A model generated the notes under the pieces. That model ran no database searches. It was not told where the DNA came from and saw nothing but the letters and a program-made list of their open reading frames with translations. Shown piece by piece: positions 1,412 through 51,893 of a DNA stretch of 64,000 nt. Every line of letters starts with the position of its first letter. Position 1 is the stretch's first letter. The position numbers were made by a program, and so were the translations under genes. The stretch is from Candidatus Aenigmatarchaeota archaeon (lineage in GTDB: Archaea; Aenigmatarchaeota; Aenigmatarchaeia; GW2011-AR5), in the NCBI GenBank assembly GCA_016187335.1, contig JACPJW010000001.1:160001-224000 (forward strand). Direction: 5' to 3'.

Positions 1412-1673
1412 GCGGGGGTTCCCGAGAAGCCCTTTTTAGAAAAAAGCGCTTGCGGAAAAACTAAGGAGGGTTAGGGAATGGCCAAAGGGGCAGGACGGTT
1501 GCCGTGAAAATGGTGCCGGGCTTCACTTAAGGCATGGCTTAAGTTTCGAGCTAAGACAGCTTAGCTATGAAAGAAATCCTGTGGCTTAGTGCCTTCGAGA
1601 GTTCGAATGCGCCCTTTCTTGGAAAGAAAGCGTGCACGGAAAGAAACGGGTGCCGAAAATCTCTTCCCCCGCA
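1412..1673 (+). tRNA. tRNA-Leu(UAA) with four BHB introns (1427-1478, 1495-1524, 1532-1575, 1608-1659)
   Basis: Exons assemble to GCGGGGG TT CCCG AGTGGCCAA AGGG G CAGGA CTTAAGA TCCTG [long variable arm] GAGAG TTCGAAT CTCTT CCCCCGC A. Each intron has a BHB. No encoded CCA; T-tract follows. Confidence 0.9.
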
Positions 1674-1737
1674 TTTTTCTGCCTTGTAGAAAGCTTTAAA
1701 TTTCTATAATGCATCCTTACTTTAAAGTAGTGAATGT

Positions 1738-2637
1738 ATGACTCTAATTTCATTCTTAAGAGCAGGACCTGGAGTTGGTGTGGGACACTCTGATCGCCAG
1801 CTATTGTACACCTCGCGTGCTAGGCCTTCGGAAACTTATCAGGCAAAGGAAAGAAAAGTCATAATGCTAGGCAGTGAGCATTGTGTTGGATACGCAACCG
1901 GAATTGACGTAGGATACGCCCGGAAAATAGTTCATTCGGCAAAACGTGCTGTGGAGTCTCGTTTGCGGGACGGACCTGTCACCTTCAAGGAAGTGCGGGG
2001 TATGGTGACAAAGGCGTATGATGAGGTTCGTTCCGGGAAAGTTCCTAAGAATTTTGATGTGGATCTTATTATTGCAGGTCTTGATGAAGACCCTCCAAAT
2101 TTTGTTACTCATGAAACCAGTTTTATATCTCCCAGACCTCCGCCCAGGGATTTTAGCATAGTAACTTATGACAAAAGCGGAGAGCTAGTTTATCACACGT
2201 ATACAGCTTCAATAGGCTCCGCATCCGACACAGCTGACAGATTTATCAATGAGTTCCTGGAAACCGTGAACCCAAGGCAGCCTTATCTCGGGCTTGTAAG
2301 ATGCGCCCAAGTAGTGATGGAAGCGCACAGAATAGCCGAGAAAAGACATAGGGGAAGCGTAGGAGAAAGAGATCAGTTGGTATGGATAAACGATAATCCA
2401 ACATTTCAAGAAACAAGCGAGAAAGAAACGTCCTTACTCGGTAGCAGCCTGCGCTTGAAGGCACAAGGCCTGCTGACTGGTGAAGTGGTTAATGAGGTCT
2501 TTAAAGTAATTTTGAATCGTGATAATTCCGAAAGGGATGCAGCTACCAGAGTAAGAGATAAGTTAAGAGAAATTCTTTTATCGGATAGTGACGGTGCAAG
2601 ACGTCTCCTCGATTACGTTCTTTTTGGAAGAAATTAA
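1738..2637 (+). CDS. divergent Ntn-hydrolase / proteasome-beta-like protein
   Basis: N-terminal M-T, DRQ, LIIAGLD and ASIGSAS segments resemble proteasome beta/HslV motifs; AT-rich, own TATA box. Confidence 0.55.
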   Translation: MTLISFLRAGPGVGVGHSDRQLLYTSRARPSETYQAKERKVIMLGSEHCVGYATGIDVGYARKIVHSAKRAVESRLRDGPVTFKEVRGMVTKAYDEVRSGKVPKNFDVDLIIAGLDEDPPNFVTHETSFISPRPPPRDFSIVTYDKSGELVYHTYTASIGSASDTADRFINEFLETVNPRQPYLGLVRCAQVVMEAHRIAEKRHRGSVGERDQLVWINDNPTFQETSEKETSLLGSSLRLKAQGLLTGEVVNEVFKVILNRDNSERDAATRVRDKLREILLSDSDGARRLLDYVLFGRN

Positions 2638-2670
2638 TATGTTCTTACGGCCTTTGTAAATAACCGTTGC

Positions 2671-3333
2671 TTACTTCACCGCTTTCTTCAGCTCAGAAGA
2701 AAATTCCTCGGCGCGCCTTTCAAGTTCATTCAATGCTATCTCGACAATTTCCGCAGCCTTCAGGCCGGATACGCTCTCGACTTCAAAAACAAACTCCTCT
2801 TCGCGGAACTTCACGTCGTCTCCCTGCGGGTCCTCGGGCCTGCCGGCAACGGGGTTCTTGTATCCCACAACAGCTGCCTGCCATTTGGCGTGCTCCTTGC
2901 CGAAGCCCAGCTGCGCTATGGCTTCGAATTTCAGCCTTTGGTTCTCATAGAGTTCCACTATAGGTATTTCCGGGTCAGCCGGCTGCACGCTGTCGTCGCT
3001 GCTCTTGATGTCGGAAGCCTTCACCATGCACGGCCCTGTCTTTTCCAGTACAAGCGTAACTTCACAGGAAGAGCAGCCTTTGCCGCCGCACTTGCATTCG
3101 TCCTTTGTCCTGTATATCTTCCTGCTGTAGGTGAGCGGTATCAGACCCACGCGGTGCGCAATTATCTCGTCAAAAAGACCCGAGCCGTTTTCCTCAAAAT
3201 CAACGTTCTCAACAGCCATGGTCGGCACTTCGTTGACCATGACGCGCCGCAATGCATTCGCAAAGCCCGCGTCGCTGTCTTCCAGAGCGAAGGATAATTT
3301 CTTTTCAGATTTTTCCAAAATTCGGAGTTTCAT
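2671..3333 (-). CDS. rpoD: RNA polymerase subunit D (Rpo3)
   Basis: FANALRRVMVNEVPTMAVE, EIIAHRVGLIPL, Cys cluster, GFGKEHAKWQ. Confidence 0.97.
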   Translation of the reverse strand: MKLRILEKSEKKLSFALEDSDAGFANALRRVMVNEVPTMAVENVDFEENGSGLFDEIIAHRVGLIPLTYSRKIYRTKDECKCGGKGCSSCEVTLVLEKTGPCMVKASDIKSSDDSVQPADPEIPIVELYENQRLKFEAIAQLGFGKEHAKWQAAVVGYKNPVAGRPEDPQGDDVKFREEEFVFEVESVSGLKAAEIVEIALNELERRAEEFSSELKKAVK

Positions 3334-3466
3334 GACAAATACACCATTAATGCAACAAAGAAATTCATCAGAAGTTTTAAATACTAGAATTTCCCCTTAA
3401 AGGAAAATTCTGTCTTTCAAACCATATCTTTATGGTTTTTAAATAGCAAATTTATTAAGGTTTTCT

Positions 3467-50563: not shown

Positions 50564-50583
50564 TACGCTACCTTAAGACCCTC

Positions 50584-50627
50584 ATCACCGACGAAGCACT
50601 GTCATCTGATCAGACGTGCTTCAGTCT
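50584..50627 (-). other. 23S BHB intron H (44 nt, H69 loop, about Ec 1917/1918)
   Basis: Outer GGCCCT/AGGGTC; splicing restores TAACTCTGAGGGTC. Confidence 0.85.
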
Positions 50628-51218
50628 AGAGTTAGGGCCGGCCTACAGCGGGGCTTAGCCCGGTTGAAACCAGGTTTGACACACCACTAGTGGCCACGAC
50701 TCACTGACCATAGAAAGCCTTTCGACTTGTCGGTCAGTTACGTTTTTGTTAAACAGTCGGGTGGCCCTTGTCACTGCGACCTGCTTGTCCCCAAGCAGGC
50801 ATGCGTTCTACCGAAGATACCGCACTAATTTGCCGAATTCCCTGGGCTGGATTATCTCGAACACCTTCGCCTTCTCGGCGAGGGGCACCTGTGTCGGTTA
50901 TTGGTACGAGCAGCCCACACCGTAACCTGCCTGCTTTTTTAAGAGCTCCGGGAATCGCCCGAACTTCCCTAAAGGGAAGCCGTTCGCATCTTCCTCAGGT
51001 TCTCGCCATGATGACACTCCCCCGAGTTCAATGCTTAAGCATGGCGACGGCCATGCTCAGGATATCCCGAAGCGTTAGCGGCAGGATAAGTATCGGCTGG
51101 TTCCGGAATATTAACCGGATTTCCTTTCCCGCGCGTCTTCCTAAGAGCACGGTTAGGATCGACTGACCCCCAGAAGATAAACTTTACTGGGGAACCCTTG
51201 CCCCTCAGGTGGTAGGGA

Positions 51219-51542
51219 ATTGAGTGCAAGAAGAAGGTGAATTAGCGACTTTCACGAAGTGCTTTAATGAAATAAATACCTAATGTTAATCCGGATACAA
51301 GCTTCGCTGCACCGGTCCAAATAAAAGAAGGGTTACCGGTTGCTCGATAAGCCATAATATCGGTAGCTCCGTCTGCTAAAAGACTTACGCTACCGACTGG
51401 AATTCCTATAGCAGTAACGTATGGATTCATTTCCTGTGAAATTCTTTCAATTCTGTCTGGAGGTTTTTGAAATTCCATATGTCACTACTAATAGATGAGA
51501 ATTTAAAGCCTATCATTCGCTTTTTGGAGCTTCTTCCCGCAT
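51219..51542 (-). other. 23S BHB intron I (324 nt, H52 loop region) carrying a small ORF
   Basis: 12-bp inner helix TGCGGGAAGAAG/CTTCTTCTTGCA; splicing restores GTAGGGCGAGAATCCCTAC. Confidence 0.88.
51242..51478 (-). CDS. intron-encoded 78-aa predicted membrane protein
   Basis: Intact ORF inside intron I, two hydrophobic segments, CTTTAAAT about 30 nt upstream of the ATG. Confidence 0.65.
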   Translation of the reverse strand: MEFQKPPDRIERISQEMNPYVTAIGIPVGSVSLLADGATDIMAYRATGNPSFIWTGAAKLVSGLTLGIYFIKALRESR

Positions 51543-51729
51543 TTCTCGCCCTACTAATGCTACTCCCACCAGGATCCTCTTTGCTGCAAGGTCCACACTT
51601 CCTCACGGAAACGCTTCTGCCCTCGCAGCACGCCTCCTTACCACTTGCGATTGCTCACAAGTCCGCAGTATCGGTGGTTTCCTTAGCCCCGTCCATTTTC
51701 TCCGCCTTGACTCTCGATGGGTCCGCTAT

Positions 51730-51893
51730 TTCGCGGAAAGCCCCTTTTTCTTGTAAGAAAAAGTCCCTTGGGTTCAAAAAGAACTTTAACTCGCTTCGCT
51801 CGGATATTATTTTTAATAATATAGCGAGCATTAGCGAGCCTTGTGTCTTTCTTTTCCCAAGGGTTTTCTTTCTTCAGAAAGAAAAGGCTTTCT
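51730..51893 (-). other. 23S BHB intron J (164 nt, GTPase centre H44, about Ec 1095/1096)
   Basis: CGCG/CGCG central helix, inner GAAAGCC/GGCTTTC. Confidence 0.88.

Follow-up and report, generated by a model that had tools for sequence, protein, structure and literature searches.

Why should introns of a tRNA gene and of a 23S rRNA gene carry the same short module? The question is raised by a 64,000-nt stretch of DNA (the window; G000:C2:160001-224000) from the genome G000 (1.01 Mb, two contigs, 91% complete) of an Aenigmatarchaeota (DPANN) archaeon; the DNA came from groundwater. An earlier note on the window had proposed that introns 1 and 4 of tRNA-Leu and introns F, G and J of the 23S rRNA gene share a module by common descent, and that introns were exchanged between tRNA and rRNA genes, possibly by EndA/RtcB-mediated reverse splicing. 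We propose instead that the likeness reflects shared membership of a family of structured cassettes of ~48 nt, here termed M3, of which that module is one subtype. The best explanation, to which we give a probability of about 0.6, is that M3 is a repeat scattered through genomes of Aenigmatarchaeota and of a few further DPANN lineages, copied at the DNA level into introns and new sites.

All the strings on which the proposal was built were found in the sequence. The 9-mer GCGCTTGCG alone is unremarkable: the window has three copies where 1.08 would be expected, and three or more turn up in 11 of 100 shuffles. The 13-mer AGCGCTTGCGGAA occurs four times in the genome against ~0.03 expected, and every copy sits within an intron, behind a AAGCCCTTTT hairpin; three of the hosts are D-loop introns, of tRNA-Leu, tRNA-His and a third tRNA (C2:723353), and the fourth is 23S intron F. 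Pairs of introns were aligned locally, and the scores were compared with those of 1000 dinucleotide shuffles. The alignments of intron 1 with F (z=10.9) and of intron 4 with F (z=6.1) were matched by 0/1000 shuffles, as were those of the C2:723353 intron (z=17.0) and the tRNA-His intron (z=9.7) with F. The link to intron G is marginal (intron 1 versus G, z=3.1, 10/1000), and that to intron J did not survive alignment, since every pair with J (intron 1, intron 4 and F) gave a non-significant z of 0.9-2.4. The introns of tRNA-Leu, tRNA-His and the third tRNA are similar and lie at D-loop positions 15/16-16/17, and the T-loop introns of several tRNAs are 89-98% identical. Common descent of the M3 copies is supported by similarity far beyond that of shuffles, which reaches both ends of F and of a tRNA D-loop intron, and by near-identical cassettes in different classes of host gene: 48-nt cassettes are 90-94% identical, for example, between the signal recognition particle (SRP) RNA gene and a tRNA T-loop intron, and between a T-loop intron and copies behind stop codons.

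To define the family, a strict pattern was used (NN-CCCTTT, hairpin, AAAG[C/T]G, 2-6 nt, CG[G/A]AA), which has 38 copies in the G000 genome. The base of the hairpin consists of CCCTTT paired with AAAG-C-G around a conserved C.C mismatch, and is extended by two covarying closing pairs. In 35 of the 38 copies, the dinucleotide before CCC is complementary to that after AAAGCG, in five Watson-Crick combinations (GA/TC, AG/CT, CA/TG, AA/TT and GG/CC). When partners were permuted, the mean was 14.4 and the maximum 24, and 0/10000 permutations reached 35; these figures come from counting by script. The CGCT of the 'non-palindromic tail' described earlier is therefore the 3′ side of a stem, opposite AGC.C before the hairpin. 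The tail is indeed shared, but half of it is stem, and the only part unpaired behind the stem is a single-stranded NN-CGGAA followed by AAGAA(A/C)ATATTA. No Rfam family matches the cassette; the Rfam hits were to host genes only (large-subunit rRNA, SRP RNA, weak tRNA, and sub-threshold RNase P). A search, by eye only, for a K-turn, a pseudoknot or pairing of the tail with exon flanks gave no consistent partner.

The hairpin has an apical part of freely variable length and sequence, which in four copies houses a whole copy of the genome's other abundant hairpin family (xAACTTTTCAGAAAAGTTx-ATCAAAA). One apical insert of ~36 nt, CGAGCCGAACGACGCAC..., recurs in the cassette hairpins at G000:C2:132852-132915 and, in the congener G001, at C82:7317-7366; it is a third nested module, and its sites in the two congeners are non-orthologous. 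In the tRNA D-loop intron at C1:26020-26126 (- strand), four tandem 19-nt units ending in TGCACGGAA follow the cassette, whose tail has undergone tandem amplification. A copy of the other hairpin family at C2:738991-739056 (-), just upstream of a tRNA, has the same 16 nt on both flanks. These are the first 16 bases of the tRNA, ending in the D-loop, and could be either a duplicated 5′ exon or part of an intron containing an exon copy.

In introns the cassette starts 1-3 nt downstream of the 5′ splice site, and its T-rich 5′ arm can pair either with the nearby 3′ arm, around the C.C mismatch, or with a perfect copy at the 3′ end of the intron. This closing arm is followed by 4 nt (H′) complementary to the last exon bases before the bulge, and in introns 1, 4 and F the 5′ arm and the distal copy together form the motif known as bulge-helix-bulge (BHB). 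The BHB-competent fold was preferred by RNAfold in introns 1 and 4 and in the intron of the third tRNA, and in intron F both helices form because the 5′ arm is duplicated. With a crude BHB finder, which overlooks introns whose cassette starts away from the very 5′ end, 14 of the 38 copies had an inner helix of at least 6 bp and at least 3 H pairs, whereas shuffled downstream sequence gave a mean of 5.3 and a maximum of 11. The H′ tetranucleotide differs at each site. The genome encodes both EndA (PF01974, 97 bits, C2:410532-410810) and RtcB (PF01139, 528 bits, C2:765179-766423), and relatives without inserts at the F and G sites align with the 23S sequence across both positions. In contigs of the only RNA run (X20, a metatranscriptome) that are at least 90% alike, joints that leave out 84 nt and 44 nt occur at two small 23S introns; their flanks are short and highly conserved, and the joints may derive from other organisms.

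The tRNA-Leu(UAA) gene (1412-1673, +) was read by hand, and the same exons are restored by orthologues in five relatives; ARAGORN reported no tRNA in the window, this gene included. Its four introns lie at 15/16, 30/31, 37/38 and 59/60. Intron 1, in the D-loop (1427-1478, +), carries a cassette of the AGCC/CGCT subtype (1428-1457) with the tail TG-CGGAA, and its closing arm and H′ lie at ~1461-1476. The predicted BHB combines an H helix CCCG/AGGG (3/4 pairs) with a 12-bp inner helix built from the 5′ arm of the cassette. Intron 4, in the T-loop at 59/60 (1608-1659, +), carries a cassette of the CGCC/CGTG subtype (1610-1641) with the tail CA-CGGAA, and its BHB is perfect (TTCG/CGAA with AAT bulges). 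Two further tRNA T-loop introns have cassettes 89-95% identical to that of intron 4.

The 23S rRNA gene (48275-54038, -; RF02540, 1886 bits), the only such gene that Rfam finds in the window, spans 5764 nt against a model of 2987 positions and contains ~12 inserts, which were located by comparison with intron-poor relatives. Intron F (50344-50471, -; 128 nt) reads, in sense order, as a duplicated 5′ arm (50471-50459), the cassette core (50458-50426), hairpin 2 (50425-50398), hairpin 3 (50397-50373), AAGAACATATCAG (50372-50360), the closing arm (50359-50351) and H′ GTAA (50350-50347). Its BHB has the H helix TTAA/GTAA (3/4) and a 13-bp inner helix, and the whole intron folds into a four-way junction (-57.2 kcal/mol, z=-5.1). 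Intron G (50492-50564, -; 73 nt) has a deviant cassette (~50532-50561) with a perfect CCC/GGG stem and the tail GCGCTTGCG (9-mer at 50532-50540) followed by TGAG; by eye, its H helix is AGCG/CGCT. Intron J (51731-51894, -; 164 nt; -72.7 kcal/mol, z=-8.3) begins with a cassette of a sister subtype (51852-51890; tail CCCTTGGGAAAA), which has a CCCTYGGGAAAA tail and three copies in the genome, and it has a second T/A-rich hairpin close to its 3′ end.

Across the genome, about two thirds of the 38 copies lie in tRNA introns (D-loop, T-loop 59/60 and anticodon region). Three are in 16S introns, one is in 23S intron F, one is in the SRP RNA gene, one is in a tRNA trailer, and one is in frame in an open reading frame (ORF) resembling prolyl-tRNA synthetase (ProRS). 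Seven abut or overlap the stop codon of an ORF on the same strand (C2:78235, 520266, 11310, 692074, 707199 and 38699, and C1:53595), and two further post-stop copies lie outside the strict pattern, namely a composite at C2:525013, behind a TAG, and a copy of the sister subtype at C2:132852. The nine copies behind stop codons are all in sense orientation; the free-standing ones have neither a closing arm nor a BHB. In all interpretable copies, whatever the host, the polarity is that of transcription. The ORFs abutted by a cassette end in TAG in seven of nine cases, against 20% of long ORFs genome-wide.

At several post-stop sites (e.g., C2:78271, 520302, 11344, 692108 and 707234) the hairpin begins with the G of TAG, and 18 of the 38 copies have an AG that ends 1-3 nt upstream of the cassette, against a background of 17%. 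The SRP RNA gene (L022:796-1186 = C2:74695-75085; RF01857, 97.9 bits) measures 391 nt against a model of 317 positions, and its cassette (C2:74733-74768) lies inside a candidate insert of ~120 nt with a 4/4 H helix. The in-frame copy is a 30-nt mini-cassette (C2:578094-578121, -; DPFGKSVDGK) just after the RC-x-PF motif of the 497-aa ProRS-like ORF; it could be either a tolerated peptide insert or an mRNA mini-intron.

To learn how widely the cassette is distributed, 301 genomes of the phylum were scanned, with the reversed pattern as a control. The pattern is present in 116 of the 301, at 0 to 41 copies per genome, and the control is near 0; genomes without a copy include several of the same family that are at least 90% complete. 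Of the tails listed, GCGCTTGCGGAA and GCGCTGGCGGAA were the commonest. Named records with the pattern are mostly Candidatus Aenigmatarchaeota. Exact-pattern matches in bacteria (e.g., 47 nt repeated across Rhizobium species) were set aside, as they look like chance matches in conserved genes.

Comparison with relatives indicates that gain, replacement and loss of cassette copies happen within a short time. In the congener G001 the tRNA-Leu gene lacks introns 1 and 4 and keeps both cassette-free introns and the same exons. In G015 both introns that bear a cassette are present, and the one at 15/16 is again of the AGCC/CGCTTGCGGAA subtype; G014 has a different mini-intron at that position; in G019 and G017 there are none. 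Insert sites in the 23S gene differ widely among 16 relatives. The F site is occupied in G015 and G014 too, by introns of the cassette type whose tails have diverged, which makes F old; at the G site, G015 has an intron with matching BHB ends and a different interior. The composite found in F (cassette, hairpin 2, hairpin 3, AAGAAACATATTA and closing arm) forms an intron at another 23S site in G014, which belongs to another genus, and the same composite without the closing arm lies behind the stop codon at C2:525013. In a 714-nt DNA contig from a groundwater run (X7; ~97% identical), introns G and H are retained, and so are 16 nt at the start and 19 nt at the end of F; the intervening 93 nt (window 50363-50455; cassette core and hairpins 2 and 3) are swapped for 11 nt. 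The BHB ends of F are thus constant while its interior is missing in a close relative, which argues for movement of the cassette within an intron already in place. At one of the sites behind stop codons, G001 retains the base and tail of the cassette around a different apical insert, and at a second it has unrelated sequence and no cassette; these orthologous spacers are ~70-74% identical.

How, then, could M3 reach so many hosts? Under DNA-level spread, M3 would form the 5′ body of BHB introns in stable-RNA genes (tRNA, 16S, 23S and SRP RNA). Its T-rich 5′ arm would serve a second time, as the 5′ side of the inner BHB helix, paired with a second, perfect copy of the 3′ arm; this closing arm would be followed by 4 nt complementary to the upstream exon, and EndA and RtcB would remove the intron. 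Outside stable-RNA genes, M3 would stand alone, directly behind stop codons. Changes at the DNA level would add, replace or remove copies, through insertion or through ectopic gene conversion via the shared arms, with both existing introns and new sites as targets and no shuttling of whole introns by reverse splicing. We consider this the most likely route, and favor it over whole-intron reverse splicing, because of the free copies, the interior indel in F, and the absence of any detectable reverse transcriptase from the 91%-complete genome.

Several points weigh against DNA-level spread. No Y1/RAYT transposase was detected in that genome, where PF01797 matched only a 16.7-bit fragment with a stop codon, below the cut-off, and no TnpB either; the searches covered Y1 and TnpB, not other transposase families. 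Neither a clean empty site nor a target-site duplication was recovered, the orthologous spacers of G001 being too diverged. The polymorphism of intron F fits gain or loss alike, and excision of these introns is a prediction from the BHB and from exon restoration. The common polarity of transcription is needless for a purely DNA-level element. Finally, the conservation of base and tail throughout the phylum and the retention of a cassette at the G001 spacer suggest selection for function and not mere selfish spread, which leaves room for an RNA-level function instead of, or beside, mobility.

The alternative that survives best follows from this last point. M3 might be a selected, functional RNA element, i.e., a protein-binding or 3′-end module that acts as a terminator or stabilizer behind ORFs and as a folding or recognition aid in introns; the likeness of tRNA and rRNA introns would then reflect shared function as much as copying. 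The base and the CGGAA tail are conserved in 116 of the 301 genomes, a cassette is kept at the orthologous G001 spacer despite a coding identity of ~70-74%, the nine post-stop copies are all sense and abut the stop codon, and covariation maintains the stem. We nevertheless regard this as rather unlikely, since copy numbers run from 0 to 41 with none in several genomes of the same family that are at least 90% complete, close relatives differ in presence and absence, one copy lies in frame within a protein gene, and insertions are nested in one another.

Movement at the RNA level, the route put forward in the earlier note, is improbable. Whole BHB introns would be reverse-spliced by EndA and RtcB into a new RNA and copied back into DNA. 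Such a route would fit the polarity common to all copies, the use of the same D-loop position by three tRNAs, the occurrence of one composite intron at different 23S sites in two genera, and the fact that F and the C2:723353 D-loop intron are alike in the 5′ cassette and also in the 3′ AAGAACATAT-closing-arm region. However, the cassette also stands free behind stop codons, where it has no closing arm or BHB, the X7 difference is an indel inside constant BHB ends, H′ is not the same from site to site, and the enzyme needed to copy RNA back was not found, as stated above. Moreover, since GCGCTTGCGGAA is among the commonest tails listed for the phylum, sharing it marks membership of the family and is no sign of recent exchange. 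Chance or convergent likeness of A/T-rich hairpins, which could draw on the non-significant 9-mer and the weak similarities of G and J, is refuted for introns 1, 4 and F by the z of 6-17 and 0/1000 shuffles of the main pairs, the four exact 13-mers and the near-zero reversed-pattern controls over the 301 genomes, and is very implausible overall; only the 3′ hairpin of J could be due to it.

Other features of the window deserve mention. One doubtful cassette-like stretch (45984-46021, -) matches the pattern inside a sub-threshold RNase P RNA match (45798-46071) that lies 2.2 kb downstream of the 23S gene (RF00373, 48.4 bits where the gathering score is 84, E=3.7e-12, over the full length of the model). 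It is partly aligned as native RNase P helices and is among the few copies that break the covariation; the region probably encodes an RNase P RNA, reduced or interrupted, which would escape standard annotation. Intron H of the 23S gene (50585-50628, -; 44 nt) contains CTGA twice, and its 3′ junction reads GGTGATGAGGG; these motifs resemble a D box and a C box in reversed order, which circularization would bring together. Two large introns of this 23S gene carry LAGLIDADG homing endonuclease genes. One of them, intron L (52382-53284, -; 903 nt), is swapped for 31 nt in an X7 DNA contig that is ~95% identical, so this homing-endonuclease intron is polymorphic among close relatives.

A recognizable cassette ties the introns of tRNA, 16S, 23S and SRP RNA to free copies behind protein genes, and the filled and empty states between close relatives make intron gain traceable in population metagenomes and testable with recombinant EndA. 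For annotation, the consequence is that standard tRNA finders overlook these genes and that ORF callers can run into cassettes. The arrival of protein-spliced archaeal introns at new sites is unexplained according to a review (PMC4090602), and a 2026 census of Asgard archaea did not identify a general way in which introns arrive (bioRxiv 10.64898/2026.10.13.758758). A full-text literature search returned no published description of the M3 cassette; new here are the anatomy of the GCGCTTGCGGAA subtype, the covariation of the stem, the polymorphism of intron F and the comparison of tRNA-Leu orthologues.

Among known systems, repetitive extragenic palindromes (REP) and bacterial interspersed mosaic elements (BIME), which are served by RAYT, an IS200/IS605-like Y1 transposase, resemble M3 in being short imperfect palindromes in tens of copies, mostly just behind genes, with a conserved unpaired motif beside the hairpin; nine M3 copies likewise abut stop codons or lie in spacers. 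M3 differs in its motif (3′ CGGAA versus 5′ GTAG in REP), in its strictly sense orientation, in the copies that lie inside stable-RNA genes as predicted introns, and in the Y1 transposase, which was not found; the assignment to REP/RAYT was rejected on the cognate enzyme. Classification as a miniature inverted-repeat transposable element (MITE) was rejected as well: the closing arm accompanies intron copies only, no flanking direct repeats were detected, and no Y1 or TnpB was found in searches that left other transposase families aside.

BHB introns of crenarchaeal rRNA genes, e.g., those of Thermoproteales 16S (PMC4496867), are also protein-spliced at conserved rRNA sites, and a LAGLIDADG homing endonuclease gene is present in some of them; in comparison, introns F, G and J are small, ORF-free and built from a cassette common to tRNA introns. 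The closest published case is that of the groups of transposed tRNA introns in Thermoproteales (Fujishima et al. 2010, Mol Biol Evol 27:2233). As these are presented in PMC4090602 and PMC10714607, similar introns occur in tRNAs of different isotype or at different positions within one genome, their distribution among relatives is patchy, and the mechanism is thought to act on DNA. Relative to the groups as described there, M3 is a defined, structured cassette, modular and nested, which occurs in a DPANN phylum instead of Crenarchaeota and extends beyond tRNA introns to 16S, 23S and SRP RNA and to free copies behind stop codons.

The broadest comparison is with the introner elements and MITE-derived spliceosomal introns of eukaryotes, non-autonomous repeats that turn into introns by carrying or completing splicing signals and that would explain bursts of intron gain (reviewed in PMC11282704). 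The likeness is an analogy only: M3 would rely on EndA, RtcB and the BHB instead of the spliceosome, and lacks a demonstrated transposase, terminal repeats with target duplications, and insertion intermediates. Tentatively, M3 and its sister cassettes may nonetheless be an archaeal counterpart of introners, i.e., non-autonomous, polarity-keeping elements that give rise to new introns, spliced by EndA/RtcB, in all classes of stable RNA and perhaps also within protein genes, with the 5′ arm of the cassette and the copied closing arm supplying most of the BHB. If true, such a counterpart would account for the extreme intron load of some DPANN genomes and would offer a concrete route of intron arrival.

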